Below are positions 1-55,995 of a stretch of 64,000 bases of DNA, one piece after another (the stretch's first letter is position 1; every line of letters starts with the position of its first letter). Made by a program: the position numbers and the translations under genes. The stretch is taken from assembly GCA_963665815.1 (NCBI GenBank), contig OY762463.1, forward strand, positions 2,368,001 through 2,432,000, in the 5' to 3' direction. Below the pieces are notes generated by a model that made no database searches, was not told the DNA's origin, and saw only the letters and a program-made list of their open reading frames with translations. The DNA is from Candidatus Cloacimonadales bacterium. Its GTDB lineage: Bacteria; Cloacimonadota; Cloacimonadia; Cloacimonadales; JAIOQZ01.

Positions 1-2692
1 TAATCAGTCTATGATTGGGGTCATTCGTTGTTATATTTATTGATGCTTCATAAGTGCCATAATCCATTCCGGATGAATCAAATGTCATGTTCACAACACT
101 GTTTCCGGCTGGAGAGATAGTTCCTGCCAAATTACTCATGCTAAGCCAGTCAACTCCAGGAGGATCAATTAATATCGATTTGCTTCCGGTCAGGTAAGAA
201 GAATTATACACTATTGGAAGACCATCTAAACCATCAGATGATTCTATCCCGACAGTACAGCTTGACGGGTCTGATGTAAACGATTCGTAGTTAAATTGTA
301 TCTTACCGTTATGATAGAATACAACCTGCCATGTTCCGCTGCTGGAAGATGGGCTGTAGAAATGCCAGTCTTCAAACTGAACAACAAACGAATCGGTATT
401 CTGTTTTGTATAAACGCTTCCGCCATTAACACCATTCATGTCATCCCAGAACGGAACAACGATGTTATTAGGATCGGCAGTGTTAGGTATATCACTGTTA
501 GTCCAGGCATTAACATCTACACCTGCTTGTTCAAAACTTATAATTCCGTTTGAGTTTATGTATATACTATTATACGTGTTTCCATAAAAATTAAAGTCAA
601 AACCAAGACTGAATGGTCCGGCATAGCCTTCATCAAGAGCATCATAGCTGCCTGTTGCAACCCAGTTTGTTACTTCAGTACCTGTAGTTTGAATATCGTT
701 CCAGGAGTAAGAAGGTCCTCCCGCTTCAGATTCATCTTTCCAGGTGTATCCATAAGTATCCGGTCCACCGGCTGCTCTTGTTACAGTTCTGGTATGACTT
801 ACAGGCATTCCGGCAAAACTACCCTGTCTGCTATCTGACTGACCTTTGGGTATTATTGTACTGTCAAATATTGGAGTATAAGCAGATCTTACTGCAACAT
901 TATCATCCACGACAATTGAATAATCGAGATCAGCATTCCCTGTGTTATATATTGTTAATGTATTTTGAGATGTATTATCAGGTTCAAGGCTTTCCAGGAA
1001 ATAGTCAGGGCTGACAGAAGCTATGGGAGAAATAGTAGTTACTGAAGCACCACTGATAATAAGAGAAAAAGCCTGAGGATTAGTGAGAAAACCTTTATGA
1101 GTCACTCTGAGAGTATATTGTCCACTTGAAGGATTAGGAATATAAACAACTTCCACATTATCAATATCATTATCAGAATTATTGGTTGCAGCAGCTGTCG
1201 GGTTTTGACCATCCAGCTTCCATGGATAATGAGTAGATGTCCCCTGAATTCTCAAGTCAAGATCATTTACAAGCATTTTATCTGTTGGATCAAGTGAAGC
1301 TGATACAGGAGTTCCCGGAATATCAGCCCAGCAGATAGTTGCCTTGAGAGGTTCAGTTCCGTCTGAATTTAAAATAACTTCGTAAGTCTCTCCATTGGCA
1401 AGAGATTGCTCAAATATTCTACCTGATATATTATCTGTTGAAATTAAATCAGCAGCAGTTCTTATATTAACCAGTCCCCAACCATATTTATAGTCAGGAC
1501 CATCATATGATCCTGCTTCATCGGCAGTATGAATTACAAGTCCTTTTAAAGTAGAAGCTTTCATGTATGTATTGTGCAGATCTTCATATAGTTCCTGCAG
1601 CAGCCCAAGTGCTCCCGCAACAGAAGGTGTAGACATGGATGTACCGGAAATAGTAAGATAGTCAGAATCACCTGTGTTATCACATGATGTAAGATTAGAT
1701 CCATTTGCTACAACATCAGGTTTGATTCTACCATCATCTGCCGGTCCCCATGAGCTGAAAGATGTAGCAGAGACATCAGAAGGTTGAGAATATCCACCAA
1801 TTATATCATAAACAGCACCAACTGTAAGGACATTTTTTGCTACACCTCGCTGACCGATACAATCGTAACCGGTTCCCTGATTCCCATCCTGAGGATAAGA
1901 ACCGTCTCCGGTATCGTTTCTGTCATTTCCCGATGACTTACATATAAGAAAATCAGGAGCATTATAAGCAATCTGATCCCATCCCTGAGATTCACTGTCA
2001 TAAAAACCAAAAAGATAGTCTTCTGTAGAGCTGATAGAGGAGTTTCCATACCAGCTCCATGTGCTTGTTCCCTGATCATATCGCCAGCCTCGAATATATC
2101 CGTAGGAATGGTTAGAAATGATCGCACCGTTTGCTCCTTCGGAAGCAAGTTCACTATCGTCATTATTCCAGTCAAATGCTCTGAGATCAGCATTATAAGA
2201 CATTCCTCTTGCATCGGGATTTAATCCTGTGGCGATCATAGTCCCTGCAACATGAGTTGAGTGATAATGAGTTGATGAAGGGTTGTCCACCTGAACTACT
2301 CTACCGCCAAATTCAATATGAGATGTGAGAACGCCGCCTCCATCCCATTCATTCAGAGTAATACCGGAACCAGTAAGGCTGTATCCGGCTCCACCACCGG
2401 GATAAACAAGATTTGCAGAGATAGTTTCTGCCGCATCTGCATTGTTAGTTGTATAGTATTGAGGTTTACCGTATTTATCAATATACTGAATATCAATAAC
2501 TCCACCCTTGCCGTCTTCTTTTCTGACAGGCAGGTTGTTTTTTATGGCAAACTCAATTGCATCTTTTTTCTGTTTATCTCGTTTTTGTCTGAACTCTTTT
2601 GCAAGTTTATTCAATTCACTTACATTCGGAACTGCAAATAAACTTATACATATTAATGCCAAAATAACCAAAATAACTAATCTCTTACTCAT
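1..2692 (-). CDS. Secreted S8 (subtilisin-like) serine peptidase, multidomain; 3' end lies outside the window
   Basis: Absent from the ORF track because it runs off the edge. Hand translation from ATG at 2692 gives signal peptide MSKRLVILVILALICISLFA, catalytic motifs EWDGGGV, HSTHVAGT and SGTSMSTPSVAG, then a later GGPDTYGYTW domain. Confidence 0.9.
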   Translation of the reverse strand, partial: MSKRLVILVILALICISLFAVPNVSELNKLAKEFRQKRDKQKKDAIEFAIKNNLPVRKEDGKGGVIDIQYIDKYGKPQYYTTNNADAAETISANLVYPGGGAGYSLTGSGITLNEWDGGGVLTSHIEFGGRVVQVDNPSSTHYHSTHVAGTMIATGLNPDARGMSYNADLRAFDWNNDDSELASEGANGAIISNHSYGYIRGWRYDQGTSTWSWYGNSSISSTEDYLFGFYDSESQGWDQIAYNAPDFLICKSSGNDRNDTGDGSYPQDGNQGTGYDCIGQRGVAKNVLTVGAVYDIIGGYSQPSDVSATSFSSWGPADDGRIKPDVVANGSNLTSCDNTGDSDYLTISGTSMSTPSVAGALGLLQELYEDLHNTYMKASTLKGLVIHTADEAGSYDGPDYKYGWGLVNIRTAADLISTDNISGRIFEQSLANGETYEVILNSDGTEPLKATICWADIPGTPVSASLDPTDKMLVNDLDLRIQGTSTHYPWKLDGQNPTAAATNNSDNDIDNVEVVYIPNPSSGQYTLRVTHKGFLTNPQAFSLIISGASVTTISPIASVSPDYFLESLEPDNTSQNTLTIYNTGNADLDYSIVVDDNVAVRSAYTPIFDSTIIPKGQSDSRQGSFAGMPVSHTRTVTRAAGGPDTYGYTWKDESEAGGPSYSWNDIQTTGTEVTNWVATGSYDALDEGYAGPFSLGFDFNFYGNTYNSIYINSNGIISFEQAGVDVNAWTNSDIPNTADPNNIVVPFWDDMNGVNGGSVYTKQNTDSFVVQFEDWHFYSPSSSSGTWQVVFYHNGKIQFNYESFTSDPSSCTVGIESSDGLDGLPIVYNSSYLTGSKSILIDPPGVDWLSMSNLAGTISPAGNSVVNMTFDSSGMDYGTYEASINITTNDPNHRLI

Positions 2693-3016
2693 ATTCTTTC
2701 CTTCTATGCTTTTAAAAATTATTTCCAATTCAAATTGAACAATAATTATAATATAGTGTCAATTTCTTTAGTCAGGAAATTGTGAATCAGATTTTTATCA
2801 GCTATTGGTTGTCTTTTGCTGAGGGGCATTGACGTTGTTTCTTTTGACCTTCTGTCTCATAAACTCACATCTCCCCGTCGTTGTTTAGACAGGAGCACAT
2901 CTTCATTTAATGCATCCTGTTGATTACATTTTCATTTTTTGGTTGACTGTATAACAAGACGATTTACTTTTTCTAAAGTACATTTAATTATTGAAAATTA
3001 TGAAATGGAGTTATAA

Positions 3017-3928
3017 ATGAAAAAACTGTTCCTGAAACAGGTAATGATGAATCGTGTACTATATGCACTGATCCCAATTTCATTGATGGCTGTTTATCTG
3101 TATGGCTTCCGAGTTCTGGGGGTAATTGCTGTGTCTAATCTTGCAGCATTCCTGACAGAATATCTCTTTGCAAGACAGAAAAAAGTCCCGAAAGTGTCAA
3201 TGGCAGTGTTTGTCACCGGTTCTCTGGTTGCTCTTACGTTACCTCCTACAATTCCATTCTGGATTGCTGCGGTAGGTTCTGCTTTCGGAGTAATGTTTGG
3301 AAAAATGGTTTTTGGCGGATTTGGTATGAATGTGTTCAATCCGGCTATTGTTGGTAGAACATTCATCTACATATCATTCCCTAAGTATATGACAGTACAA
3401 TGGCTGAAACCTTTTGAAGGATTCCCCGGCGGATTCCTGCACTGGATGCAGCCAGATAATATTACTGCAGCTTCACCAATTATTACATTCCGTGATACAG
3501 GTGTAATGGAGTCATTCACTAAGATATCACTGGGAACAATCCCGGGGTGTATAGGTGAGACTTCAGCAGTACTGATTCTTGCTGCTGCAATATATCTTAT
3601 TGTTACAAAAACAGCTAAGTGGCAGCCTATGGTTGGCTGTCTGATAGGTTTTGCTGTCAGTACACTCATATTCTATGGAAAAAGCCCTTTGTTCTTCATG
3701 CTGAGCGGTGGATTCATGTTCGGTACAGTATTCATGGTGACTGACCCTGTTTCAATGCCTAAAAATAAAAAAGCTATCTGGATCTACGGAATCCTGGTTG
3801 GATTCTTAACCGTGTTTATTCGCAGATTCTCACTTTTTGCAGAAGGTTTCATGTTCGCCTTATTACTGGCAAATGTAACCATGCCGATTGTTGAGTACGC
3901 AATGAGCTACAAGCCGAAGAAGAAGTAA
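3017..3928 (+). CDS. rnfD: RnfD/NqrB-family ion-translocating oxidoreductase membrane subunit
   Basis: GKMVFGGFGMNVFNPAIVGR, GCIGETS, FMVTDPVSMP and FAEGFMFALL motifs; RBS GGAG. Confidence 0.93.
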   Translation: MKKLFLKQVMMNRVLYALIPISLMAVYLYGFRVLGVIAVSNLAAFLTEYLFARQKKVPKVSMAVFVTGSLVALTLPPTIPFWIAAVGSAFGVMFGKMVFGGFGMNVFNPAIVGRTFIYISFPKYMTVQWLKPFEGFPGGFLHWMQPDNITAASPIITFRDTGVMESFTKISLGTIPGCIGETSAVLILAAAIYLIVTKTAKWQPMVGCLIGFAVSTLIFYGKSPLFFMLSGGFMFGTVFMVTDPVSMPKNKKAIWIYGILVGFLTVFIRRFSLFAEGFMFALLLANVTMPIVEYAMSYKPKKK

Positions 3929-3938
3929 GGAGATATTC

Positions 3939-4562
3939 GTGGCAGAAAAAACACCTTTCACAGAAACCAGAATATATCCGATCATCTTTATGATGATAGT
4001 GACAATTGTATTTGTCGGACTTCTGGCTTTCTTTTATCATTCATCCAAAGAACGTATTGAAAGTAACGAACAGCTTGCGTTCCAGAAAAAGATTCTGGCT
4101 TTGTTCAGCCTTTCTGCGAAGAATCCTTCCGAAGCATTCGGAAAGTATATAAAAACCGAAACAAAGGATGACCTGACATTTTACAAAGCAGAAAAAGACG
4201 GAGCTATGCTCGGGTATGCTTTTGTAATTAACGGCCCGGGACTCTGGGGATCAATCAACGCTGTTGCTGCTTTCACGACAGATTTGAAGCAGATAATAAA
4301 GTTTGATATTCTCAATCAGAATGAAACACCGGGACTGGGCGGCAGAATTACCGAAGACCAGTTCAAAGATCAATTCAATAATAAAGTACTCGTAAAAGAT
4401 AATAAACTAATAGACTTCAAACTTATTGCTGAAGAAGAAACACCGAAAGCAAACGAAATCTGTCAGATTACCGGAGCAACGTTTTCTTCTCAGTCTGTAA
4501 CCAAGCTTATATACAAAGAAATGATACAAATCAGTAAGAAGATGGGATTTTCTTATGACTAA
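3939..4562 (+). CDS. rnfG: RnfG/NqrC-family FMN-binding subunit
   Basis: N-terminal TM helix, GLWG, ETPGLGGRI and ITGAT flavinylation motif. Confidence 0.92.
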   Translation: MAEKTPFTETRIYPIIFMMIVTIVFVGLLAFFYHSSKERIESNEQLAFQKKILALFSLSAKNPSEAFGKYIKTETKDDLTFYKAEKDGAMLGYAFVINGPGLWGSINAVAAFTTDLKQIIKFDILNQNETPGLGGRITEDQFKDQFNNKVLVKDNKLIDFKLIAEEETPKANEICQITGATFSSQSVTKLIYKEMIQISKKMGFSYD

Positions 4563-5154
4563 AAAAGAAATATTCATTACGTCGGCATTTACAGAGAACT
4601 CTGTCTGGAAACAGATTCTGGGGATTTGCTCTGCACTCGCTGTAACTAACTTGATGATGAACAGTCTGGTAATGGGATTAGGAGTAATATTCACCCTGGC
4701 TCTCTCAGGTTTCACAATTTCACTGATCAGAGACTTTATACCAAGACGTGTTCGTATGATGGCACAAACACTGATAATTGCGTCCTACGTGATTATTGTT
4801 GATATAACACTTAAGGCTTATCTACCGGAAATCAGTAAGAATCTCGGACCATATGTCGGTCTGATTATTACAAACTGTATTATTATGGGTAGAGCAGAAG
4901 CCTTTGCAGGTAAAAACAGCCCGATAGATTCCATGATCGACGGAATAGGTGCAGGTTTCGGATATACATTCGTTCTGCTGCTTATTGCTTTTGTCAGAGA
5001 AATCTTCGGTTTCGGTTCAATCTTCAACATTCAGATACTCGGTGACTGGTGGACAAAATGGTCTATTATGGTTATGGCTCCAAGTGCATTCTTTATACTT
5101 GCTGTTATAATCTGGATCATTAACGGACCTCTGGCAGCTAAGAAAGGGAAATAG
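4555..5154 (+). CDS. rnfE: RnfE/NqrD-family membrane subunit
   Basis: LGICSALAVT and LIITNCIIMGRAEAFA motifs. Confidence 0.92.
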   Translation: MTKKEIFITSAFTENSVWKQILGICSALAVTNLMMNSLVMGLGVIFTLALSGFTISLIRDFIPRRVRMMAQTLIIASYVIIVDITLKAYLPEISKNLGPYVGLIITNCIIMGRAEAFAGKNSPIDSMIDGIGAGFGYTFVLLLIAFVREIFGFGSIFNIQILGDWWTKWSIMVMAPSAFFILAVIIWIINGPLAAKKGK

Positions 5155-5163
5155 GAGATAATT

Positions 5164-5754
5164 ATGGTAGATGTATCATCAATAGTAATATTCTTCGCAG
5201 CAATTTTCACCAGTAATATCCTGCTGACGAATTTTCTCGGAATGTGTTCTTTCCTTTCAGTATCTAAAGAAGTAGAATCATCATTCGGACTTGGTATGGC
5301 AGTTGTGTTTGTCATGACAGTTACATCAGCACTGAATTATGTTGTATACCATTATATACTCGTACCTTTCGATATTGTGTACCTGCAGTACATAGTATTC
5401 ATTATCGTGATCGCCGCTTTTGTACAGCTTACAGAGATCGTGATAGAACGATTCTCACCGGTTCTGTATTATTCTCTCGGAATATTCTTACCTCTGATTA
5501 CCGTGAACTGTGCGATATTCGGGGTAGCTTTATTCATGATTATCCGAAAATACAGCTTTATTCAGGCAGTAGCTTACGGAGCAGGTGGCGGAATCGGTTG
5601 GATGCTGGCAATACTTATGCTTGCAGGTATCAGAAAGAAACTTAAAGACAAGTTCATACCAACAGGTCTGCAGGGAGCAGGAATAAGTCTTATAATTACC
5701 GGAATCATGGCTCTGGCGTTCATCGGGTTCTCCGGTGTTGCGGTTATTCAGTAG
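5164..5754 (+). CDS. rnfA: RnfA/NqrE-family membrane subunit
   Basis: FLGMCSFL and GIFLPLITVNCAIFG motifs. Confidence 0.92.
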   Translation: MVDVSSIVIFFAAIFTSNILLTNFLGMCSFLSVSKEVESSFGLGMAVVFVMTVTSALNYVVYHYILVPFDIVYLQYIVFIIVIAAFVQLTEIVIERFSPVLYYSLGIFLPLITVNCAIFGVALFMIIRKYSFIQAVAYGAGGGIGWMLAILMLAGIRKKLKDKFIPTGLQGAGISLIITGIMALAFIGFSGVAVIQ

Positions 5755-5767
5755 GGAGGACAAAAAA

Positions 5768-6865
5768 ATGAACGTTATCATACTGAATATACTTATTGCA
5801 ACAGGTATCAGTACTTTTCTGGCAATACTTCTCGTTATAGCCGAAATGCTGTTTGCCAACTACGGTGATTGTGAGATTGAGATAAACGGTAAGAAGAAAG
5901 TTACTGTTAAAGGCGGAGGAACACTGCTTGGTGCTCTTGCAGATAACAAGATATTTGTACCTTCTGCCTGTGGTGGAAGAGGCTCGTGCGGGTTCTGTAA
6001 ATGTAAGGTGGAATCCGGCGGAGGACCTTTACTCCCAACTGAAAAACCGTTTCTGACTGCTGCAGAACAAAAAGACAGTATCAGACTATCCTGTCAGGTT
6101 AAAGTCAAAGAAGACATCAAAATAAACATACCTGAAGAGATTTTCAATATCCAGAAGTTCACTGCTGTTGTAGAAAAGATAGAAGACTATACATATGACA
6201 TTAAAGGTGTAACATTCAAGCTTATTGAGCCAAAGGAAATCAACTTCAAAGCAGGACAATATGTTCAGCTTCACACTAAGAAATACGGCAAAGTAAAACA
6301 GGTGGTTTCCAGAGCATACTCAATATCCAGCTCACCGGATTTAAAAGACAGACTTCAGCTTATTATAAGACGAGTACCTGACGGAATCTGTACAACCTAC
6401 GTGCATGATTTCCTTAAGGAAGGTGATGAAGTGAACTTTACAGGACCATACGGTGATTTCTTTATCAGAGATACAGATGCAGAGATTATTTATATTGCTG
6501 GCGGATCCGGAAAAGCTCCTATCAAATCTATGATGGACTATTTTGCGAATCATCACAGTGACAGAAGAATGGTGTATTTCTTTGGTGCTAGAACAGAACA
6601 CGATCTTTATCTGACCGACTACTTTAACGAGTTCGAGAAGAAGCTGAACTTCACTTATGTACCGGTACTCTCTCAATGTGAGAACAAAGACTGCTGGAAT
6701 GGCAGAATGGGCTATATTCCGGAACATTTCGATGATTTCCTGACTAATCCGAAGAACTCGGAAGCGTATTTATGCGGATCCCCCGGTATGATAGCTGCAG
6801 TTGAGAAAGCTCTCATAAAATCCGGTGTCCCAAAAGATAATATATACTACGACAGTTTTGCTTAA
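5768..6865 (+). CDS. nqrF: NqrF-like membrane-anchored [2Fe-2S]/FAD/NAD(P)H oxidoreductase
   Basis: TM helix, CGGRGSCGFC...RLSC [2Fe-2S] motif, RAYSISS FAD motif, AGGSGKAP and YLCGSPGM NAD motifs; start moved to the ATG behind GGAGGA. Confidence 0.85.
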   Translation: MNVIILNILIATGISTFLAILLVIAEMLFANYGDCEIEINGKKKVTVKGGGTLLGALADNKIFVPSACGGRGSCGFCKCKVESGGGPLLPTEKPFLTAAEQKDSIRLSCQVKVKEDIKINIPEEIFNIQKFTAVVEKIEDYTYDIKGVTFKLIEPKEINFKAGQYVQLHTKKYGKVKQVVSRAYSISSSPDLKDRLQLIIRRVPDGICTTYVHDFLKEGDEVNFTGPYGDFFIRDTDAEIIYIAGGSGKAPIKSMMDYFANHHSDRRMVYFFGARTEHDLYLTDYFNEFEKKLNFTYVPVLSQCENKDCWNGRMGYIPEHFDDFLTNPKNSEAYLCGSPGMIAAVEKALIKSGVPKDNIYYDSFA

Positions 6866-6877
6866 AGGAGGATTACA

Positions 6878-7330
6878 ATGAAACTTACTCCAAAACAGAT
6901 TAAAATCCAGGAGAGAATGGCAGAAGGAAAAGTAACTATAGACGGATTCCTCGGGAATGATCCTCGACCATACCCTGAGATTATAGAAGATGATTTAAGA
7001 AAGCTGTCAGCTCTGGACAAAACTCAGGAAGAAATAGCTGACAGGCTCCAGTATTTCACGGATAAAGCATTTGAAAGCTATGATGGACCAATTGTTATTG
7101 ATAATATTTATAAGGTAGAATACAAGAGCTACAGGGGGAAAATGATTAGTCCATTCCTGGAAGTCGGGAGATTCTCTAAAGGTGAGATAACTCTGGAAAA
7201 CCTGGAAAATAAGGTGAAAATACATTGGACTCCATTGTCAATCCATATGATTCGAGTGCATGGTTTCTTTGAAGGCAAAGGTTCAGGACATAGAATAGAA
7301 CCCGATCAAGTCGTAAAAGCTTTGTTTTAG
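6878..7330 (+). CDS. Hypothetical protein, co-operonic with the Rnf/Nqr cluster
   Basis: 150-aa ORF, strong RBS AGGAGG, 12 bp after nqrF. Confidence 0.8.
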   Translation: MKLTPKQIKIQERMAEGKVTIDGFLGNDPRPYPEIIEDDLRKLSALDKTQEEIADRLQYFTDKAFESYDGPIVIDNIYKVEYKSYRGKMISPFLEVGRFSKGEITLENLENKVKIHWTPLSIHMIRVHGFFEGKGSGHRIEPDQVVKALF

Positions 7331-7342
7331 GGGGAGGATTAT

Positions 7343-7855
7343 ATGAAATCGCTTAAGGAACAAAAAGCTATAGCTGCGGTATGCGGTTTATATTGTGGAG
7401 CATGTTCAGCCTATATTGCAACAAAGGAAGATCCGGCAAGACTGACTCAACTGGCAGGCATGTTCGGTTGCAGTGAAGAAGATGTAAAATGCCATGGCTG
7501 TCGTGGAGATATAAGAGGCTCATACTGTTCTCAGTGCCGTATGGTGCAATGTGCCGAGGAACGCGGAATAGATTTTTGCTCGCAATGCAGTGAATACCCC
7601 TGCGATGTGATTAAGGAATTTCAGGCGCAGGCACCACACAGAAATGAGTTGTGGGAAGATCTGGCAAGGATCAGAGAAGTCGGCTATGAAAAATGGCTGG
7701 AAGAAGTTAAAGAGAAGTACACCTGTAGTGATTGCGGAACTGTTAACTCTGCGTATGATCTTGTCTGCAGGAAATGCGGAGCTGATCCATCCTCGGAATA
7801 CACAAAAAAGCACAAAGACAGTATTATCTCAGCTTTGACGATGTTTGGGAAGTAG
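7343..7855 (+). CDS. DUF3795-like Cys-rich metal-binding protein
   Basis: CGLYCGAC, CHGC, C-x-x-C repeats and CSQCSEYPC, plus a C-terminal zinc-ribbon. Confidence 0.8.
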   Translation: MKSLKEQKAIAAVCGLYCGACSAYIATKEDPARLTQLAGMFGCSEEDVKCHGCRGDIRGSYCSQCRMVQCAEERGIDFCSQCSEYPCDVIKEFQAQAPHRNELWEDLARIREVGYEKWLEEVKEKYTCSDCGTVNSAYDLVCRKCGADPSSEYTKKHKDSIISALTMFGK

Positions 7856-7872
7856 AAAATACTGAGGGTGCG

Positions 7873-10056
7873 ATGAAAATTAAAACAGGATTATGGTTAC
7901 TTCTGATAGTAATTATCTTGAATACGGGTTGCAAGCCTGATTCACCCAAACTTAAAGAGGATAGGCATTTTGAGATTCAGGTTAATGATTATAGCATTTT
8001 GAATCATTCAAAGTATAAGGATAAAAAGAAATTTGATAATATCATTGAATTAAAAGAATCTCCCTACTCAGTGAAACATGGAAATAAAAATGATCATAAT
8101 GGTACGTTGAACTCTTACTCTAAATTATCTATTTCCCTTGATGGAAAAATATATCTTCTTTCAAGTTATGGACATCTATATAAAACAAGTGGAATTGACT
8201 CAGTCTGGACTTCTCTTAATTCCCTCCCTCGACAAAATCCCAATAGTGATCAAAGATATAACCAAACTTATTGTACTGATATAACGTTTTGTACTGATAA
8301 TATTGCTCTGGTGACCGGAAGATTAGCTGTAAATGAAGGGTTTGGTATATACCGAACTGAAGATAATTGTAAATCCTGGGAATATTTGGAGTTGTCAGGA
8401 GAAGAAGAGCTCTTTGCAATACATATTACGGAGAACCGTAGAATCTGGTTGGGTGGTTCTTCCGGTAAGATATACTATTCTGATGATCTAGGTGAAACAT
8501 TTGATATAATAGAAAACAAAACAATAGCTGATCAGTGGGTAATGAGTATCTATATGACAGATAAATCAAATGGTGTTCTTGCAACTACAGAAAACTTTTA
8601 CTCAACTACTGACAACTGGAAAACAGCAGAATTAATATCTCCAAGACCTTACGGTCAAAGAAAAAATGAACTGAAAACGAATTTACTATATCCAGGTAAC
8701 TATAAAATTGCTGTTTGGAAAGATTATGTTATTGCAAGAACAGCAAAGGGAATCTTAAGCAAAACAATCAATACAATAACTGGTGATTGTACATGGGAAG
8801 AATTCCCTGAAAAGATAGAGGATTTTAGTATTTGTGATAATTCTGGAAAGTTGTACGGGATATGTAGAGACGAAGGCTTATTCAGGTTTCCAGATCAGAT
8901 TTATATAGTCGAATATTCATCTCCAACTGAATGCAATAGCATCAAGAAAATAGTTGATTCAGAATACATCAAAGATATTGAAGTTTGTAGTGATGAGTTA
9001 TATATTCTGGATAATTCAGGTTTAATGGAAATTACTTCCGAAAAAAAAATACCTTCTCAGATGATTCTTAAAGGTAAAACTATTGATCCATATAATAGAA
9101 ATATTCGAATATCAGATGCCGGCATAAAGTATGGATCTGACCACAATAATCTGTATTGTTTCGATGAAGCTGTAAATGACTGGTACAGAGTATGTGCAAC
9201 AACCTTTAATATCAATAGCTTCAAAATCCTCTCAGACAAGCAGATTGCACTTTCTGATGGCAGTAATTATTATCTTTATTCTCCGGATAAGGATTATCTA
9301 GAGGACTACACCTACGAAAAACCTTTAACAGATTTCCTGAAATTTCCGGTAACATCTATGAAAATTAAAGGTGAATATCATGGTTGCTGGGATGAAATTA
9401 TATCTTACATTGAATTCAAGAGAGAAGATGGAAAACTTATTTCTGTGAAATACACGAATAATAAACATAAAAGCGATTCAATAATTGAATTCAAACACCA
9501 GATAGAAACAGAAACACTGAATAATGTTTTACACTCAATCAATAAGGAACCAGACAATATCTCAGAGCCCAGAGATTTCAATTTCACACAAGAGCATATT
9601 GATTGTTATCTGAAATTTGTTAGAGAAAATGATTATATGTGTATTCCAGAAGACTTCTATTGTAAAGTCCCTTCAATACTTGATACGGTTAACTCGGATC
9701 TTTTTAAACATATTTTGTCATACTTTAGAGAATCACCTGTCAATAATCATCCACTTAATCTAAAAATAGTAATTTTTAATCAGGTAGATGACTCAATTGA
9801 GATAAAAGCTGCAATCAATGATTCAGATATAGCCTGGGGCTTCCCCTGGTCTATTGAGTACAATAGCATGAGGTTTCTGAATCTAGACATTGAACTTTCC
9901 AGATTTATTAATAGCTGTTTGCCCGATGATTTTCCAAGTAAACAATTTGCTGAATTCAATTACCTTTTTAAAGAAATAGGGGATTACTTTAATTGGGTAA
10001 ATGGTGTAAGTGAAAAATATTTCAAAAAATTGAAAGATGAGGAAGCTAACAGGTAA
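7873..10056 (+). CDS. Lipoprotein with Asp-box/BNR beta-propeller (YCF48/VPS10-like) and unknown C-terminal domain
   Basis: Lipobox ILNTGC; Asp-boxes RTEDNCKSW, YSDDLGETF and STTDNWKT. Confidence 0.7.
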   Translation: MKIKTGLWLLLIVIILNTGCKPDSPKLKEDRHFEIQVNDYSILNHSKYKDKKKFDNIIELKESPYSVKHGNKNDHNGTLNSYSKLSISLDGKIYLLSSYGHLYKTSGIDSVWTSLNSLPRQNPNSDQRYNQTYCTDITFCTDNIALVTGRLAVNEGFGIYRTEDNCKSWEYLELSGEEELFAIHITENRRIWLGGSSGKIYYSDDLGETFDIIENKTIADQWVMSIYMTDKSNGVLATTENFYSTTDNWKTAELISPRPYGQRKNELKTNLLYPGNYKIAVWKDYVIARTAKGILSKTINTITGDCTWEEFPEKIEDFSICDNSGKLYGICRDEGLFRFPDQIYIVEYSSPTECNSIKKIVDSEYIKDIEVCSDELYILDNSGLMEITSEKKIPSQMILKGKTIDPYNRNIRISDAGIKYGSDHNNLYCFDEAVNDWYRVCATTFNINSFKILSDKQIALSDGSNYYLYSPDKDYLEDYTYEKPLTDFLKFPVTSMKIKGEYHGCWDEIISYIEFKREDGKLISVKYTNNKHKSDSIIEFKHQIETETLNNVLHSINKEPDNISEPRDFNFTQEHIDCYLKFVRENDYMCIPEDFYCKVPSILDTVNSDLFKHILSYFRESPVNNHPLNLKIVIFNQVDDSIEIKAAINDSDIAWGFPWSIEYNSMRFLNLDIELSRFINSCLPDDFPSKQFAEFNYLFKEIGDYFNWVNGVSEKYFKKLKDEEANR

Positions 10057-10081
10057 TATTTTCTTCAGTAGAATAATATTC

Positions 10082-10432
10082 CTACAACTTCACTCCAAAA
10101 TGACCTAGAACTGCAATAAGGATAAAATAGAGAACTACAGTCCCTGCAGAAGCGATCAGCATGGACAGATAGAAGTTGATGTTCAGTTTCAGCATCAGGG
10201 GCAGGATAACAAAGAATGCCAGAGACGGCAGCACCATCCAGAAAACACCGATCGATAACTGACTGACCTGTTTAACATCTTTTGTGTCATGATACAACCA
10301 TAATATTGCCAGAACAGACACTAATGGCAGGGATGCCAGTATTGCACCCAGCAGGGAGCTGCGTTTGGATATCTCGGATATTGCTACAATCAATACTGAG
10401 GAAATCAGTAATTTTATTATATAATACCACAT
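10082..10432 (-). CDS. DUF3147-family small membrane protein
   Basis: ISEISKRS..LGAILASLPLVS signature; start moved to the ATG behind AAGGAG. Confidence 0.8.
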   Translation of the reverse strand: MWYYIIKLLISSVLIVAISEISKRSSLLGAILASLPLVSVLAILWLYHDTKDVKQVSQLSIGVFWMVLPSLAFFVILPLMLKLNINFYLSMLIASAGTVVLYFILIAVLGHFGVKL

Positions 10433-10844
10433 TGTTGTCTCCTTCGGAATATAAGTCATTCTATTTACATCAATTGACAAAGCTTATTTATTGAGTATTG
10501 GACAAAACAGATGTACAAAATGTCAAGAAGAGAGAAAAAAAGACAAGATAATTAAAGTTAGTTTTTCTTATAATTCTGATCATACTCTGCCTATTACAAA
10601 CAGGCTTCTTTACTCAATTCAATGGAAAATGGAAAGAAATCATAATTTCTGACTACACAATAAAACAAATATTAAGAACTAAAAGAAGTCATATTTATTC
10701 TATGAAGGTCTTATCTTCATTTGCAAGGTCTTTTTGTGTTTCAGGAAAGGGCTGAATAGATTTTCTGATTTATTTTCTTGACTGGAAACAGATTGCATAT
10801 TCTCATTTACTTAATCTTTATTATTGAACATTATAGGAGAAGCT

Positions 10845-18110: not shown

Positions 18111-19040
18111 TTATGAATACAATACTTTCAATCTTTGACTAAGAAGAGTATTGTATCTATCTTTCATGTTTTCAGAAAGAAAACTGATTGATATCAACTT
18201 CTGCCATATAGGAATACAACTTTCAATTTCTGCGAGAACCGCACTGATTCTTTTTCGCTGTATCTTCATTATATCATTTGCCAGATATTCAGTAAAATCT
18301 GCTCTTCTGAGCTTACTCTTTTTACCTGCAATGGGAAGTGCAATTTCTTCTGCTGGATTGCTTATTGCAATGGAAGTATTCAGTAAGTCATAAGAAGGAC
18401 TAAGCTCAGTTTTATTGTTTCTTGTTATTAAAGAGAAGTTTTTCAAGTGCATGTCTTCATTCCCGGAAAGGTAATTAAACAATGCAATTCTGAATAGTTT
18501 TATCATTTCCAGAACAGGAAAAGTTGTGTAATCTGCAATTATCGATACAATTTTCTCCATACTGGAATCATACTTTGTCTTTCTTTTTTTCTGAGAAATT
18601 TGAGAGAAATCTTCGACTGCAAACTTCGTACTGTGCCCTTTACGATCAAATCTTTTAACTATATAACATAATTCATCGTTTTTTGAGTAAATCAATCCAT
18701 GCCATGGAACTTCAATACCTGCTGCACTTGCCATCTTCATTGTCAAATCTTCATTCTCCGGTAACTCCGGATAGTTCATGTTCTGTGGCTTTGCAATGAA
18801 TTTCCCTTTAATGTCAACAATCTCAAACCTTTGCTTTGCTGCATTCAGTTTCATGCTCAATTTAGGTTGAACTCCCTGAATAGACATTTTCCCGGCTCTG
18901 TTAATGTATTCAAGATAAAACTCTTCTGACGAATACGGAAGAATTTCAAGATCGCTCAACTTTGGAGATAACTGCCGCAATCCCCTTTCTGAATACCTAC
19001 CCCCTGCTATTTCTTCGTAAGTAATTGGACACCTTGTCAT
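18111..19040 (-). CDS. hipT: HipT/HipA-like Ser/Thr kinase toxin
   Basis: MSIQGVQPK loop, GNEDMHLKNFS and PSYDLL; lacks the HipA N-terminal subdomain. Confidence 0.85.
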   Translation of the reverse strand: MTRCPITYEEIAGGRYSERGLRQLSPKLSDLEILPYSSEEFYLEYINRAGKMSIQGVQPKLSMKLNAAKQRFEIVDIKGKFIAKPQNMNYPELPENEDLTMKMASAAGIEVPWHGLIYSKNDELCYIVKRFDRKGHSTKFAVEDFSQISQKKRKTKYDSSMEKIVSIIADYTTFPVLEMIKLFRIALFNYLSGNEDMHLKNFSLITRNNKTELSPSYDLLNTSIAISNPAEEIALPIAGKKSKLRRADFTEYLANDIMKIQRKRISAVLAEIESCIPIWQKLISISFLSENMKDRYNTLLSQRLKVLYS

Positions 19041-19342
19041 TCTGCTTCCTCAACTGTTATTGCCCCAACAAGATCTCTTCCTACAATAACTATCTGAGAG
19101 AAATAGTCTTCTTCATCTATTTTGAACTTCCTTAAAAGAGCTTCCAATTGATATCCCTCCGGTAAAAGCCCGTCAAGAAAGGGTGGAAACTCTGAAAACT
19201 CGAAACTTCTTTTCACCACCGGTAAAGCAAGCGAAACAGGTTGACCAAAATAATCAGGCAAGTATTCAAGCTTGTACCCGTTCTCAGATTCTACCATTAT
19301 AGCAGCAGCTTTATCATGCATCCTCAGTATTAGCTTTCGCAT
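19037..19342 (-). CDS. hipS: HipS-like protein (HipA N-terminal/couple_hipA domain)
   Basis: PVSLALP, PPFLDGLLPEG and DLVGAITV motifs. Confidence 0.82.
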   Translation of the reverse strand: MRKLILRMHDKAAAIMVESENGYKLEYLPDYFGQPVSLALPVVKRSFEFSEFPPFLDGLLPEGYQLEALLRKFKIDEEDYFSQIVIVGRDLVGAITVEEAE

Positions 19343-39067: not shown

Positions 39068-40018
39068 TTATTCCGAGATTACTGTTTCCTCAAACTTATC
39101 CATATTTTCAGCAATCCATTTTTCTGCTGAGAATGCTGCAATTGCGCCTTCACTCGAAGCTGTTACTACCTGACGCAAAACTTTATGCACAATATCACCT
39201 GCCGCATATACTCCCGGGATGTTTGTATGCATTTCTTCATCTGTGAGAATAAATCCTTGTTCATCCAACTCTACCCTGGATTCTACAAGCTGATTGTTCG
39301 GAATAATACCAACATAAACAAACACACCATCAACAGGAAGTGTTGAAATCTGCTCTGTTTTTCGATTGTACAGCTCTATCTGCTGAACAAAATCTTCTCC
39401 CTGAATCTCCTGCACAACAGTATCCCATATAAACTCAATCTTAGGATTTTTAAATGCTCTTTTCTGCACTGCATGAACAGCTCTGAGTTTATCTCTTCTA
39501 TGAATTATATATACTTTTTCAGCGAATCTGGTAAGGAACATTCCTTCTTCAACAGCAGAATCTCCACCACCTATAACGGCTACGGTTTTCCCTCTGTACA
39601 ATGCTCCGTCACAGGTTGCACAATATGATACTCCACGACCTGTCAGCTTTTCTTCACCGGGGACAGCCAGTTTTCTCGGATGAGCTCCCGCAGCGAATAT
39701 TACAGACTTAACTCTGTATTTTGCTTTATCTGTCTCTATAATTTTACAGAGACCTTCAATACCTATGGCAGTAACATCTTCCTGTAAAATTTCAGCATTA
39801 AATTTCTCTGCCTGAGTTTTCATTTTATCTGCTATCTCAAATCCAGAAATACTGTTTTCAAATCCAGGATAGTTCTCAACTTCAGTTGTTAGAACAATCT
39901 GACCACCAATAAGGCCTTTTTCAAAAACAATTGTACTTAATCCACCACGAGCAGCATAAACAGCAGCACTTAATCCTGCCGGTCCCGCTCCGATAATAGC
40001 TATATCATATTTGTTCAT
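39068..40018 (-). CDS. trxB: Thioredoxin-disulfide reductase
   Basis: GAGPAG, SYCATCDG and GGGDSAVEE motifs. Confidence 0.97.
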   Translation of the reverse strand: MNKYDIAIIGAGPAGLSAAVYAARGGLSTIVFEKGLIGGQIVLTTEVENYPGFENSISGFEIADKMKTQAEKFNAEILQEDVTAIGIEGLCKIIETDKAKYRVKSVIFAAGAHPRKLAVPGEEKLTGRGVSYCATCDGALYRGKTVAVIGGGDSAVEEGMFLTRFAEKVYIIHRRDKLRAVHAVQKRAFKNPKIEFIWDTVVQEIQGEDFVQQIELYNRKTEQISTLPVDGVFVYVGIIPNNQLVESRVELDEQGFILTDEEMHTNIPGVYAAGDIVHKVLRQVVTASSEGAIAAFSAEKWIAENMDKFEETVISE

Positions 40019-52187: not shown

Positions 52188-54134
52188 TTATATCTCTACA
52201 ATTTCCCATCCATTATTTTCTAATTCTGAGTAATGTTCTATATTTACTCTATCCTTCTTAAACGCCACGCATAATAAATGAGTTGGTCTGCTCATAGCAA
52301 CATATGCCATTTTTAAGGATTTACTCATATCATTTCTATTAGCTTTTTTTTGATCATGCCTTCCTTTCATAAAATCAAGTAATCGTTGAGATTCAAATTT
52401 CTTATAATATGTTTCCATTAAAAGCGTTGCAGTATGTGTTTCTCCCTTAACAGAATGAATCTTCCCAACTTTAATGTTAATCTCTTTTCTCGTAAATTTA
52501 TTGTTTGTATTTTTGACTTCATTCTTGAACTCTTCTAATTCAGCATTTAAGAAATCACTTATTTTCGATACTTTAATGTCGAAAACTCCAGAAAAATCTA
52601 CTTCTATAAATTTAATTACTTGATTTACAATGCAGACAGGATAAAATTTCTTCGAGTGTTCACACTCAGTATTGCAACAATGAGAATGTATTTTCTTAGT
52701 CCATTCTGCCAGTTTTTCCAAAAAATTTACTAAGAAATCAGGATGATTATCCTCAAAATGTTTCAGTAATGATTTTTTAGTAAATCGTCTTCCGTATTTA
52801 CGTTTATTCAGTTCTTGTTTGACTTCAGCAATATCCAATATTGCCAGAAAACAGTTTATCAGAGCATCATAAATTGGTTTTGTATCCTTACGACCTACAG
52901 GTTTAACAAGATAGTTCTTCAGTGAATTAAAAACTGTTTTTCCGGTTTTCTTGGGATCGTTAAAATCAGAGAAATAATCCCTTAGTGTAAGAGTGTCCTT
53001 GTCTTTGGCTACCCAGGAAACAGCTTTGTACACAGGCTTCTTAACATCTTTCCATTCATTCTTGTTTTCGTTTATTAATTCAGCAAACTTCTCAAGGACT
53101 TCTGAAGGTTCATCAAACAAGATCAATTTCGGTGTGATACCCGAAATAAATTCCGATCCTTTTAACTTATCTTCTGGAGTTTTGCAAACATATTTTATTG
53201 AACCCGCAATATTCTGAGAAAACCTTTTCGAAGTATATATTTTGATAGGATTCGTTTCCACTTTCCAATCTCCAGAACGGTTAATATTACTGTAAATTGC
53301 CTGATTAGGATCTCCAATCCTTTGTATAATAACAGATTCACTAAATACTTTTTCCAGTAAATCAATTTGATATTGAGCAGTATCCTGCATTTCGTCAATG
53401 AATACAAAACTGAATCTTTTAGAAAGAGCTGTGTTATGCAGTGGATATTTTCTTAAAAATGTGTATGCTAAAGAGTATGCATCATCAAATGATAAAACCC
53501 CATTATCCATAATAACACGCTTCATCCTTGAAATATTATTCATTATCTTTGCTTCATCAAATCGAGTTGTATCAATACAGAGATCTTTACCATATAGATC
53601 TCCACCTATTGAGAAGTCGCATATACAATATCTCAAAGAGTTGGGATAATTATTTCTGCCTGAGCTGTAGCACCAATTGTTTACTTCTTTTCCTAAATAC
53701 ATTCTTTGATTTTCAATATATTTATAATACAAAGCATTATCTATTTTTACAATTCTTTTGTTCTTCCAATTACAATAGTATGGAACAGCCAAAAACTTAT
53801 CAACAAAACTCTGGATAGTTCCAAAGAAGTTTGGATAGCTGAACAAAACTGAAGACTGCTTTCCCATCCGTTCCTTTATTTCGTTGATAGCCACATTCGT
53901 ATGTGTAAGAACACATATTCCCTGATTATTATCAAAAGGCATAAACTTGGATAGTATATAAAGTTTGGCTAATAATGCAGTTGTTTTTCCGCTACCCGGG
54001 CAGGCTACAACATCTCTTGTATCAAGACACTTTATAAACTCCCTGCTGGCTTCATCGAAAGTACCTCCACCGGGAAGCAACACTCTTTCAGCTTCTGGAA
54101 TAAATTTGTCTATGTTTTCACTATTGAGAGTCAT
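52188..54134 (-). CDS. gajB: UvrD-family helicase, GajB-like
   Basis: ACPGSGKT, LTHTNVA, GTIQSF, IDEMQD, IGDPNQAIY, IHSVKGETH and YVAMSR motifs. Confidence 0.8.
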   Translation of the reverse strand: MTLNSENIDKFIPEAERVLLPGGGTFDEASREFIKCLDTRDVVACPGSGKTTALLAKLYILSKFMPFDNNQGICVLTHTNVAINEIKERMGKQSSVLFSYPNFFGTIQSFVDKFLAVPYYCNWKNKRIVKIDNALYYKYIENQRMYLGKEVNNWCYSSGRNNYPNSLRYCICDFSIGGDLYGKDLCIDTTRFDEAKIMNNISRMKRVIMDNGVLSFDDAYSLAYTFLRKYPLHNTALSKRFSFVFIDEMQDTAQYQIDLLEKVFSESVIIQRIGDPNQAIYSNINRSGDWKVETNPIKIYTSKRFSQNIAGSIKYVCKTPEDKLKGSEFISGITPKLILFDEPSEVLEKFAELINENKNEWKDVKKPVYKAVSWVAKDKDTLTLRDYFSDFNDPKKTGKTVFNSLKNYLVKPVGRKDTKPIYDALINCFLAILDIAEVKQELNKRKYGRRFTKKSLLKHFEDNHPDFLVNFLEKLAEWTKKIHSHCCNTECEHSKKFYPVCIVNQVIKFIEVDFSGVFDIKVSKISDFLNAELEEFKNEVKNTNNKFTRKEINIKVGKIHSVKGETHTATLLMETYYKKFESQRLLDFMKGRHDQKKANRNDMSKSLKMAYVAMSRPTHLLCVAFKKDRVNIEHYSELENNGWEIVEI

Positions 54135-55995
54135 TGTTTATCCTGATTCCTGCTACATGCAAATTTTATTGCTTCTACAATGTATTTTAAATGTTCATCT
54201 TTCTCAATCTTTTCTTTTGTAATATCAGGTGAATCAATCATTTCTGCAAGATATTGTGCTGTTGTTCCTTTAGATAAACCTTTTAAAAATGGTTTCATCA
54301 TTTCATATGGATTACTTTCATCTTCAGGAAGAGATACACTTTTGCCTGATAATTCTTCTGCACTTTTCATAGACACTAAAAGTGAACTCTTCAAACAACT
54401 TTGTGCAAGACTATATTCAAGGGTCCAATCATTTTTATATACTTTGAAAGTTTTTGTTGATTCAGTTTTCTTATCATTCTCTTCTAAGAATGACAAGTAT
54501 GCTTTAATATGTTCTTCTTTTAACTCCTCTTTTTTGGGATTTGATAAACAAGAGCAATTATTAATTTTTTCCTTAAATCTATCTTTATTTGTCTCAATTA
54601 TTACTTTATCATTACAATAACACCAATAGACCTTGGGTGGATGGTCTATTAAGTACTCATTACACGGAATATCCCCATCGGATATTACTGCTACTTTCAT
54701 TTCGAAGTCAGACCCATCATTTCTGCTGAAAATACCTGCCCAATTTTGCCAATGTGCACCACCTACATTTATTATTGAAACACCATGTTTGTGTAAAGGC
54801 AAATCAATTTGCCTGGCAATTGCAGGAACAATTAAGTTTTCAGCAATACCTTCTACAATAATGACTCCTTTTGCAAAAAATAAATTTGCTTTTGTTGCAT
54901 CGAGAAATCTTTCCAGAAACTTATAGTCTTTTTCATCAAGATTTGTATGTTCTTCATCCATTGGAAACACTTTATCATTCTTGCAAATAATAAGATTCCC
55001 TAATGGAATACTAGAGCCAAGAGTAATACTGTGGGTAGTTAAAATTGTCTGTCCATTACCTTCTTGATTATCAATTAGGTATCTGAGTACGTTCAGTTGA
55101 TAATGCGGATGCAGATGTGCTTCTAATTCTTCTATTACTGTCAATTTTAACCCGTTAAATCCATCCCTTTTAATTAGTAATATTCTGCTGCAATATAGAG
55201 TAAGTTCAGCATTCCCAGACTTGGCTGATTCTCATCAATATTCAGAGAAAGTCTTTGCAGAATTGCCCATAACTCAACACCTGAAAGGTTAACAAATGGA
55301 GTATGATCATCATCCTCACTTGTAAATCCTTTTATTGCGTCTTTTACATCTTCTATTATCTCATTTCCTTCCCCTGATGTTGCAATATTAAAGTAATCTT
55401 TAATTTCTTGGTCAGCTTTTTCAATAGCTTTTTTAATCTTATTATCTTTTAATTCTTCCTCAGTTTTCTTAAAAAGATGATGGTTTTTTAGCAATTGAGA
55501 AAACCTTGATCTTCTACCTGCTGACATTTCCTGCTCTGCATCTCTCAATGGTTTTAAGTATGTTATACGAAGTAAATCTCTCGCTCTTCCATCCATTTGA
55601 GAGCCTATGTCATCCATACCTGCTCTTGTATCCCAGATAATTCTGTTATCTTTCCTTTCTGCAGTTATCCACACTCTGAGTTTATAATTTTTTCGTACAT
55701 CAAATCCTATCCATTCAAGAAAATTACCTGCTTCAGAGTCTGAGAAACCGGTAAATATACCTTCTATCCTAAGATTTGACGCTCTTTTACCATCACTATA
55801 ATGGAAATCAGCCTCATATAGTCGCTGGTATTCGTAACTCTGAGTATTCAATAAAAATCTTATTGCATCAACAATTGTCGTTTTTCCTGAAGCATTTTCA
55901 CCTATGAGTACATTCAGCTTTTCGTTAAAGTGGACTTCAATACCTGGACTTCCATATTTCCGGAAATTATCTATTTTTAATTCTGATAAATACAT
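54131..55995 (-). pseudogene. gajA: OLD-family ABC-ATPase/TOPRIM nuclease, GajA-like, split by a 1-nt frameshift
   Basis: GENASGKTT, LKPLRDAE, IEELEAHLHP, TTHS, VEGIAE and ISDGD; adding one base at about 55182 joins both ORFs (AAELLLIKRDGFNGLKLTVIEE). Confidence 0.8.

Follow-up and report, generated by a model that had tools for sequence, protein, structure and literature searches.

The window analyzed here is a 64,000-nucleotide stretch (contig OY762463.1, positions 2,368,001-2,432,000; assembly GCA_963665815.1) of a Candidatus Cloacimonadales bacterium, and its subject is an operon with the makeup of an RNF- or NQR-type redox pump (NQR, Na+-translocating NADH:quinone oxidoreductase). An open reading frame (ORF) listing combined with Pfam and NCBIfam profile searches revealed six closely packed plus-strand genes spanning positions 3017-7330, all of them intact. 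The first five encode, in this order, subunits of the D, G, E, and A types (D2, G2, E2, and A2) and an NqrF-like reductase (F2) built of a transmembrane (TM) helix, a [2Fe-2S] ferredoxin domain, a flavin adenine dinucleotide (FAD) domain, and an NAD(P)H domain. The sixth encodes a conserved soluble protein of 150 residues, hereafter o150. Profile searches of the proteins encoded at 3017-7855 found no RnfB, RnfC, or NqrA. This gene order, the reductase type, and the three absences had been described in the initial annotation, together with a start of the operon at the rnfD-type gene after a divergent intergenic region, and our searches bear out both; the divergent gene is that of a minus-strand S8 peptidase. 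The five genes that it named are all present on the plus strand at the coordinates given, but it passed over two more in the same interval, o150 and a DUF3795 gene. The D subunit does have the reported 303 residues, yet it cannot be called short next to its closest solved relatives, the RnfD chains 9eri_D and 7zc6_D (318 and 310 residues, respectively), and is so only beside NqrB (415 residues).

Curated models leave D2, E2, and A2 on the fence between the two families. D2 reached 210.1 bits with TIGR01946 (rnfD; cut-off 207.05) versus 200 bits with NqrB. E2 scored 235.3 bits with the NqrD model NF006777 (cut-off 235) versus 169 bits with rnfE, and A2 scored 224.9 bits with nqrE versus 218.9 bits with rnfA. 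G2 fell under the cut-offs of both the rnfG and nqrC models, the RnfG score being slightly higher. F2 obtained 292.2 bits with TIGR01941 (nqrF), slightly below the cut-off of 295, and alignment showed that it lacks two insertions seen in canonical NqrF; its start is likely the ATG at 5768, which gives the length seen in relatives, rather than the GTG at 5735. The four-subunit membrane core appears to retain its redox equipment. Cys25 and Cys108 of E2 and Cys28 and Cys116 of A2, the predicted ligands of a [2Fe-2S] center, are invariant in 141/141 aligned A/E sequences. The sequence of G2 reads as an N-terminal TM segment and a TGAT motif and that of D2 contains DNITAAS, which we take to be flavinylation sites. 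The latter carries Ser where relatives carry Thr: the residue, at about position 152, is Thr in 32 of the 33 other aligned D/NqrB/RnfD sequences, and the remaining one is gapped there. That the cluster is a decaying, functionless remnant of an nqr or rnf operon would fit the lack of subunits common to both known families, but it is scarcely credible for six intact ORFs that keep the four cysteines and both motifs and for a cluster present in 100/151 Cloacimonadota genomes at 56 to 87% identity, as well as in two other phyla. Judging from these sequence features, the intact operon very probably represents a separate branch of the NQR/RNF redox-pump family, one that lacks NqrA.

Table. Features of the window discussed in the text (positions in the window; strand)
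Feature	Position	Strand	Remarks
D2, RnfD/NqrB-type, 303 aa	3017..3928	+	PF03116, E 1.8e-84
G2, RnfG/NqrC-type FMN-binding, 207 aa	3939..4562	+	PF04205 (FMN_bind), E 4.6e-12
E2, NqrD/RnfE-type, 199 aa	4555..5154	+	PF02508, E 1.7e-58
A2, NqrE/RnfA-type, 196 aa	5164..5754	+	PF02508, E 6.1e-55
F2, NqrF-like reductase, 365 aa from ATG	5768..6865	+	Fer2 + FAD_binding_6 + NAD_binding_1
o150, conserved soluble protein, 150 aa	6878..7330	+	sixth gene; no Pfam/NCBIfam match
DUF3795 + zinc-ribbon Cys-rich protein, 170 aa	7343..7855	+	PF12675, E 8.5e-17
Upstream intergenic region, presumed promoter region	2729..3016	.	288-bp gap before D2
Divergent S8 peptidase gene	2-2728	-	upstream neighbor of operon
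Lipoprotein-like ORF, 727 aa	7873-10056	+	weak sortilin/BNR-type matches; G+C 0.32
Split HipA-like kinase	18111-19342	-	ORFs of 101 and 309 aa
Thioredoxin-reductase-like gene	39068-40018	-	among nucleotide-metabolism genes
Gabija-like pair	52188-55995	-	
Gabija-like nuclease, first ORF	55174-55995	-	AAA/OLD-TOPRIM
Gabija-like nuclease, second ORF	54131-55144	-	AAA/OLD-TOPRIM
UvrD-type helicase of Gabija-like pair	52188-54134	-	

To place the cluster, we relied on a joint tree of the A and E subunits, since RnfA/NqrE and RnfE/NqrD are ancient paralogues and each half of the tree roots the other. The main tree (IQ-TREE, LG+C20+F+G4 with posterior mean site frequencies [PMSF], 70 rows) recovered an F-type superclade devoid of RNF sequences, supported at 100/98 (E half) and 98/98 (A half). 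Within it, canonical NQR was monophyletic (100/99 in both halves) with the window sequences outside, as sampled by the loci most similar to F2 and without NQR from Vibrio, Bacteroidota, or Chlorobi, a selection that counts against this placement. The Cloacimonadota and Planctomycetota clusters formed a clade of their own (100/99 and 99/95). A quick 141-row A/E tree agreed with the careful one, as did the D-subunit tree, in which RNF (99, excluding D2), the F-type group (99), and NQR (100, without D2) were all recovered. In the reductase tree, canonical NqrF (100/100) stood apart from short reductases (92/93), with F2 among the latter. These trees place the cluster outside canonical NQR and inside a clade of NQR and its relatives that excludes RNF.

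The same trees bear on the origin of the missing subunit. A locus of Cloacimonadota genome G121 (L166; C143:6000-19000) carries, at 983-10562, genes for RibF-like, ApbE, RnfG-like, RnfC-like, D (342 residues), G, E, A, short NqrF-like (374 residues), and MenA proteins. Its RnfC-like protein (515 residues) exceeds the rnfC cut-off and retains the two CxxCxxCxxxC (4Fe-4S) motifs. L166 is sister to Bacillota clusters that lack the C subunit (99/97 and 100/99). Because RNF has RnfC, NQR keeps its homologue NqrA, and L166 branches among lineages devoid of either, the condition of the window cluster must, on this phylogeny, be a secondary loss and not a primitive absence; such a loss probably happened at least twice, going by the A-half topology, the better supported of the two (99/85). 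The proposal in the initial annotation that the operon is an evolutionary intermediate between Rnf and Nqr is thus contradicted by the branching order. It is L166, an RnfC-plus-NqrF hybrid beside menA, that plausibly resembles such an intermediate.

The lineage is common. Among the 151 Cloacimonadota genomes sampled, F2 was found in 103, D2 in 100, and o150 in 108; comparison of the genome lists showed that 98 of the 103 F2 genomes also have D2 and 102 also have o150, the only one devoid of o150 being G121. The D-G-E-A-F order followed by o150 recurs in Planctomycetota, and the same order without o150 occurs in Izemoplasmatales, whose loci L030, L032, and L033 belong to the NqrA-less class, and in other small-genome Bacillota. 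Canonical nqr loci retrieved in the same scan encode NqrB of 377 to 426 residues and NqrF of 406 to 411 residues, and carry an NqrA-like gene wherever upstream sequence exists. The best 120 of 8,000 candidates in a homology search with A2 were close Cloacimonadota relatives only, named NqrE or "Rnf-Nqr domain" in their source annotations. The nearest public relative of the locus is in a Candidatus Cloacimonadales metagenome-assembled genome (97% identity).

The host genome, a single contig of 3.96 Mb that is 98.7% complete, allowed us to ask what the cluster could cooperate with. Besides two ApbE genes, it contains a separate canonical rnfCDGEAB operon (G000:C1, ~1.988-1.993 Mb), the only place where RnfB and RnfC occur. 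The cluster might, as the initial annotation had proposed, borrow RnfC from the rnf operon and work as an ion-coupled, transhydrogenase-like machine with NAD(P)H in and NAD+ out, or as an alternative NADH entry to Rnf chemistry. All carriers tested do have a canonical RnfC (the host, 148/151 Cloacimonadota, and 5/5 Planctomycetota), and the related L166 has an RnfC-like subunit of its own. RnfC is, however, near universal with or without the cluster, so that its co-occurrence is uninformative; each genome has a single rnfC, which lies within rnfCDGEAB; D2 falls in another clade than RnfD; and NADH at both ends would leave no driving force. We consider this arrangement quite improbable.

No NqrA was found in the host genome either, TIGR01936 (cut-off 321) matching nothing but the canonical RnfC, with 22.9 bits; this model exceeded its cut-off in just 1/151 Cloacimonadota genomes. 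Genes for quinone synthesis were looked for as well. The sole UbiA-family (PF01040) gene of the host adjoins a polyprenyl synthase gene, and its best models are of the geranylgeranylglyceryl phosphate (GGGP)-type prenyltransferase, below cut-off (197 versus 296 bits); menA is not among the models that match it. Searches of the genome for the futalosine-pathway proteins MqnA/D (PF02621) and for cytochrome bd were likewise negative. Within the phylum, MenA (E <= 1e-10) was detected in 3/151 genomes, G114, G121, and G127, which are exactly those with NqrA-like or RnfC-like matches in a second cluster, and menA adjoins the nqrF-type gene of that second cluster in all three contigs examined. MenA was found in none of the 98 Cloacimonadota genomes having both D2 and F2 and in 0/5 carriers tested from Planctomycetota and Bacillota. 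The N-terminal stretch and first TM helix of NqrB form the quinone/inhibitor pocket, according to the available part of a cryo-electron microscopy (cryo-EM) preprint by Kishikawa et al. NqrB models align to D2 only from profile position 110-112 onward and the PDB alignment of D2 begins at NqrB residue 139, so this N-terminal stretch is absent from D2.

With no nqrA elsewhere in the genome, subunits that do not nest within NQR, and neither a quinone prenyltransferase nor futalosine genes found in the host, the cluster is not an ordinary nqr operon split in two, the outcome that the initial annotation had singled out as the one that would undo its reading. Its statement that the complex has no exit module is, by contrast, too strong: NqrA is devoid of cofactors, and the riboflavin in NqrB is where electrons exit NQR, as stated in the consulted section of a 2025 RNF/NQR review, so that loss of the C/A subunit removes a docking subunit and not a redox step. 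For the same reason, the lack of NqrA need not end quinone reduction, and a trimmed NQR could in principle still reduce a scavenged or unrecognized quinone or another lipid-soluble carrier; the cluster is indeed called Nqr in the published annotation, at least in the accessible text of Williams et al. 2021. The negative searches for MenA/UbiA-type, MqnA/D, and cytochrome bd genes, the distribution of MenA, which in Cloacimonadota sits beside clusters bearing a C/A subunit instead, and the missing pocket region of D2 make this distinctly improbable. Given the absence of MenA, MqnA/D, and cytochrome bd from our search results and of the NqrB N terminus from D2, we read the cluster as something other than a quinone enzyme of the usual NQR type, with a scavenged quinone as the residual possibility.

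If not a quinone, the acceptor may be a protein, and the sixth gene encodes a candidate partner. o150 matched no Pfam or NCBIfam profile, and its protein atlas matches were "hypothetical protein" clusters only. Its predicted structure is of high quality (predicted local distance difference test [pLDDT], 94.7; predicted template modeling score [pTM], 0.88), but the fold found no Foldseek match in the PDB at E <= 0.001, and the best of 48,161 chains aligned with VIA-align had a Z of 2.7. Sequence reading predicted neither a TM segment nor a signal peptide. At E <= 0.001 the family comprises 472 representatives, most of which stand alone and have ~150 residues; its near-invariant positions include G23, F24, G26, D28, R30, D39, G87, P92, and K101 as well as H123, H128, F130, and G133.

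Genomic context ties o150 to the reductase. The gene lies directly after F2 in 102/103 F2-bearing Cloacimonadota genomes, and F adjoins o150 in 12/16 Planctomycetota o150 loci examined. In 6 of these 12 pairs there are no membrane genes, and four of the six reductases have no TM helix. The Planctomycetota F proteins without membrane genes nest within the short-F clade of the reductase tree; the soluble reductases therefore descend from membrane-bound forms. A soluble F-o150 pair without membrane genes is also found in Cloacimonadota genome G127 (L169; C29:3000-13000). The soluble reductases of L106, L108, L109, and L110 (Planctomycetota) and of L169 have 332 to 336 residues, and each is followed by o150 with no membrane subunits. 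Across these loci, o150 appears to track the reductase, not the membrane core. Co-folding of F2 (residues 30 to 365) with o150 gave a median score of 0.50 (runs of 0.51, 0.50, and 0.42) versus 0.00 for three controls, with a contact agreement of at least 94% and a partner pLDDT of at least 88. In the benchmark of the co-folding tool, 58/80 solved complexes and 2/110 mismatched pairs reached the mark; scores of 0.60 or lower comprised 7/80 solved complexes plus both passing mismatched pairs. The genomic prior being high, we take the predicted complex as modest support, and o150 is likely a partner of F2.

The neighborhoods of related loci hint at the pathway that such a pair could serve. Four Cloacimonadota loci have no upstream sequence and were excluded; in 13 of the 16 with enough of it, rubrerythrin or rubrerythrin-like genes lie directly upstream of the cluster on the same strand, in some cases with a formate-tetrahydrofolate ligase gene interposed. 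Five loci have flavodiiron and desulfoferrodoxin genes too, and one more has a flavodiiron gene alone. In L169, the soluble F and o150 are preceded by genes for a flavodiiron protein and three rubrerythrin-like proteins. A thioredoxin-reductase-like gene precedes the soluble F in four Planctomycetota loci, and desulfoferrodoxin and Hsp20 genes occur near locus L107. Among 19 longer members of the o150 family that were scanned, two have a C-terminal rubredoxin domain and one each is fused to rubrerythrin, nitroreductase, and AhpC/TSA; the others showed no match (11) or weak DUF matches (3). Rubredoxin fusions are typical of the terminal oxidant-reducing enzymes of anaerobes, which is why a terminal or adaptor role is favored for o150. 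Taken together, the neighborhoods hint that the cluster serves defenses against oxygen stress and not a respiratory quinone pool, a connection absent from the initial annotation. The window itself has a thioredoxin-reductase-like gene (see the table), which is 42% identical to one of those preceding the Planctomycetota soluble reductase-o150 pairs.

We tentatively propose, at somewhat less than even confidence for the explanation as a whole, that the operon encodes an NqrA-less, protein-reducing Na+ pump that feeds oxidant defense through o150. NAD(P)H would reduce the FAD and [2Fe-2S] of F2, and electrons would then pass through the E2/A2 cluster to the flavin mononucleotide (FMN) of G2 and on to the FMN, and probably riboflavin, of D2, a path that would drive Na+ export as in NQR and RNF. 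Since the four [2Fe-2S] cysteines and both predicted flavinylation motifs are kept, the path from NAD(P)H to D is likely preserved, and by homology so is ion pumping. Electrons would leave toward the cytoplasm to a protein acceptor instead of a quinone, within the network by which anaerobes detoxify O2 and peroxide (rubredoxin, rubrerythrin, flavodiiron protein, desulfoferrodoxin), and o150, bound to F2, would serve as terminal protein or adaptor. In loci that have lost the membrane genes, a soluble F2 with its o150 would carry out the same chemistry without ion coupling. The acceptor and the mechanism are the more doubtful part of this proposal. In its most specific form, that is, an Na+-pumping NAD(P)H:protein oxidoreductase of quinone-free strict anaerobes whose electrons end on O2 or peroxide by way of o150 and rubredoxin-, rubrerythrin-, or flavodiiron-type enzymes, we regard it as rather unlikely.

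Several observations weigh against this proposal. The o150 family has no invariant cysteine, and neither cofactor binding nor an enzyme function could be assigned to it; the co-fold score of F2 and o150 falls in the band of weak support. The protein is present in 0/3 genomes of the Bacillota branch and is therefore not a universal acceptor. In one genus, o150 persists in five genomes that have no F2, and its neighbors there are housekeeping genes. In two loci of this genus (L170 and L171, of G003 and G018), no NqrF-like gene is present and o150 closes a YebC-RuvC-RuvA-RsmB-PASTA gene row. That o150 follows F and not D would suit a direct transfer from F to o150 at least as well as an exit from D2, which does not account for the membrane loop, and homology is the sole ground for Na+ coupling. 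The stress synteny comes from one phylum, its 13 loci are not independent, and 3/16 relatives (L013, L025, and L026) show no such link. In the host genome itself, the stress genes are ~235 kb from the cluster and not adjacent to it. They form a group of flavodiiron, rubrerythrin, rubredoxin, and rubrerythrin-like genes at G000:C1:2609793-2613567, which in most relatives lies directly upstream of the cluster.

Electrons could also be exported in one direction, as in flavinylation-based extracytosolic electron transfer: those of NAD(P)H would cross the membrane by way of E2/A2, reach the FMN of G2, and pass from the outer face to an acceptor in the periplasm or outside the cell, with D2 as a structural subunit or the carrier of a second outer-face flavin. 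G2 does retain its membrane anchor and flavinylation motif, the host has two ApbE genes, and partial NQR/RNF-like systems are read as unidirectional exporters in the sections consulted of Meheust et al. 2021 (PMC8238504). Nevertheless, the cluster includes no conserved gene for a secreted or flavinylated acceptor, D2 keeps its flavin site in every aligned member although one-way export does not require it, and o150, with no predicted TM segment or signal peptide, is paired with a cytoplasmic reductase. Such export is thus improbable. On the sequence evidence gathered here, we would rank a cytoplasmic oxidant-defense acceptor with F-bound o150 first, followed by outer-face export via G, RnfC in trans, and scavenged quinone.

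Other features of the window are peripheral to this argument. Promoter-like matches numbered 29 versus a mean of 26.8 in shuffled sequences, terminator-like matches likewise showed no excess, and a half Rex-like box spotted by eye in the gap upstream of D2 was dropped. A look-up of RNA data sets listed none that contains window positions 2700-8000. The DUF3795 gene downstream of o150 was considered as a component of the system and rejected: 0/64 related loci have it, including the 97%-identical relative, so it is probably not part of the system. Paralogues of the encoded protein lie at three other sites of the host chromosome (C1, at ~637.6, 3191.5, and 3728.7 kb). The lipoprotein-like ORF that follows has a G+C content markedly below the ~0.40 against which it was compared and was possibly acquired. 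Further along, the nuclease of a Gabija-like pair is distributed over two ORFs, a split that may reflect a frameshift or a stop, and a HipA-like kinase is divided into a "Couple_hipA" ORF and a HipA_C ORF laid out like a toxin-antitoxin module.

Clusters of this description have surfaced before. In the available passages of the respective genome papers, an NqrA-less nqrBCDEF is noted for Pseudothermotoga (Thermotoga) thermarum and lettingae (PMC4148951). The 2018 paper on Clostridium ultunense mentions an NqrA-less cluster as well and proposes that its acceptor lies below quinone in potential (PMC5924567), and another is listed for Ca. Izimaplasma ZiA1 (PMC6256511). The window cluster meets that description, with five genes in B-C-D-E-F order and no nqrA found in the genome, and what those passages report is shared: the B/D-C/G-D/E-E/A-F order, no NqrA, Rnf elsewhere, a strictly anaerobic host, and an unknown partner for NADH. 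Neither a phylogeny nor a sixth gene nor any connection with oxidative-stress genes appears in those passages. By their architecture alone, the Thermotogae and Clostridia clusters would belong to the clade of the window cluster. Williams et al. 2021 report "Nqr" for Antarctic Cloacimonadota with no comment on NqrA or quinones in the text available, and the portions consulted of Reyes-Prieto et al. 2014 and of the 2025 RNF/NQR review do not treat the A-less class. Our literature search on NqrA absence returned papers on V. cholerae mutants only and no experimental work on the NqrA-less class. The operon thus joins a class noted in genome papers since 2014 but uncharacterized. As far as this search shows, the new elements are the phylum-wide exclusion of an endogenous quinone, the placement outside canonical NQR with loss of C, the reductase-o150 pairing that outlives the loss of the membrane genes, the stress neighborhood and fusions, and the RnfC-bearing, menA-linked relative L166.

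The textbook representatives of the family are NQR and RNF; a third branch, widespread and lacking the C/A subunit, has been labeled "Nqr" since at least 2014. Metabolic models of anaerobic digesters and sediments currently assign to such organisms an NADH:quinone reductase, an activity that they probably cannot put to use in that form. The acceptor question becomes testable, with o150 as candidate partner and rubredoxin, rubrerythrin, flavodiiron protein, and desulfoferrodoxin as candidates downstream. Were the most specific form of the proposal true, oxidant detoxification would conserve energy in a quinone-independent micro-respiration built from NQR parts, and o150 would represent a novel type of redox protein with a terminal or adaptor role.

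Three other systems share some features with the window cluster. The NQR/RNF-like systems in the sections consulted of Meheust et al. 2021 (PMC8238504) are single proteins in which an NAD-binding domain is joined to a membrane domain of RnfD type, and they come without NqrD/E. They have in common with the window cluster a partial NQR/RNF apparatus, an NAD(P)H-binding domain, flavinylated parts, and an unknown function; here, in contrast, D2 and F2 are encoded separately and accompanied by NqrD/E-type subunits. The rule applied in that work (K00351 NqrF present) would count the window cluster as NQR. With Rnf it shares the size and fold family of RnfD (303 versus 310 to 318 residues) and the D-G-E-A order, but it lacks RnfC and RnfB, has a ferredoxin-reductase-type NAD(P)H subunit at the position of RnfB, and its membrane subunits branch with NQR. 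In comparison with Na+-NQR (Vibrio cholerae 7xk3 and 8a1t), it differs by the lack of NqrA, of the first ~100 residues of NqrB, and of the two NqrF insertions, by a host in which no quinone synthesis was found, and by the additional o150. It resembles that enzyme in the domain layout of its NADH entry subunit, in an E2 at the NqrD cut-off, in C/G and B/D subunits predicted to be flavinylated, and in the four-cysteine center, and in all trees NQR is its sister or nearest clade.

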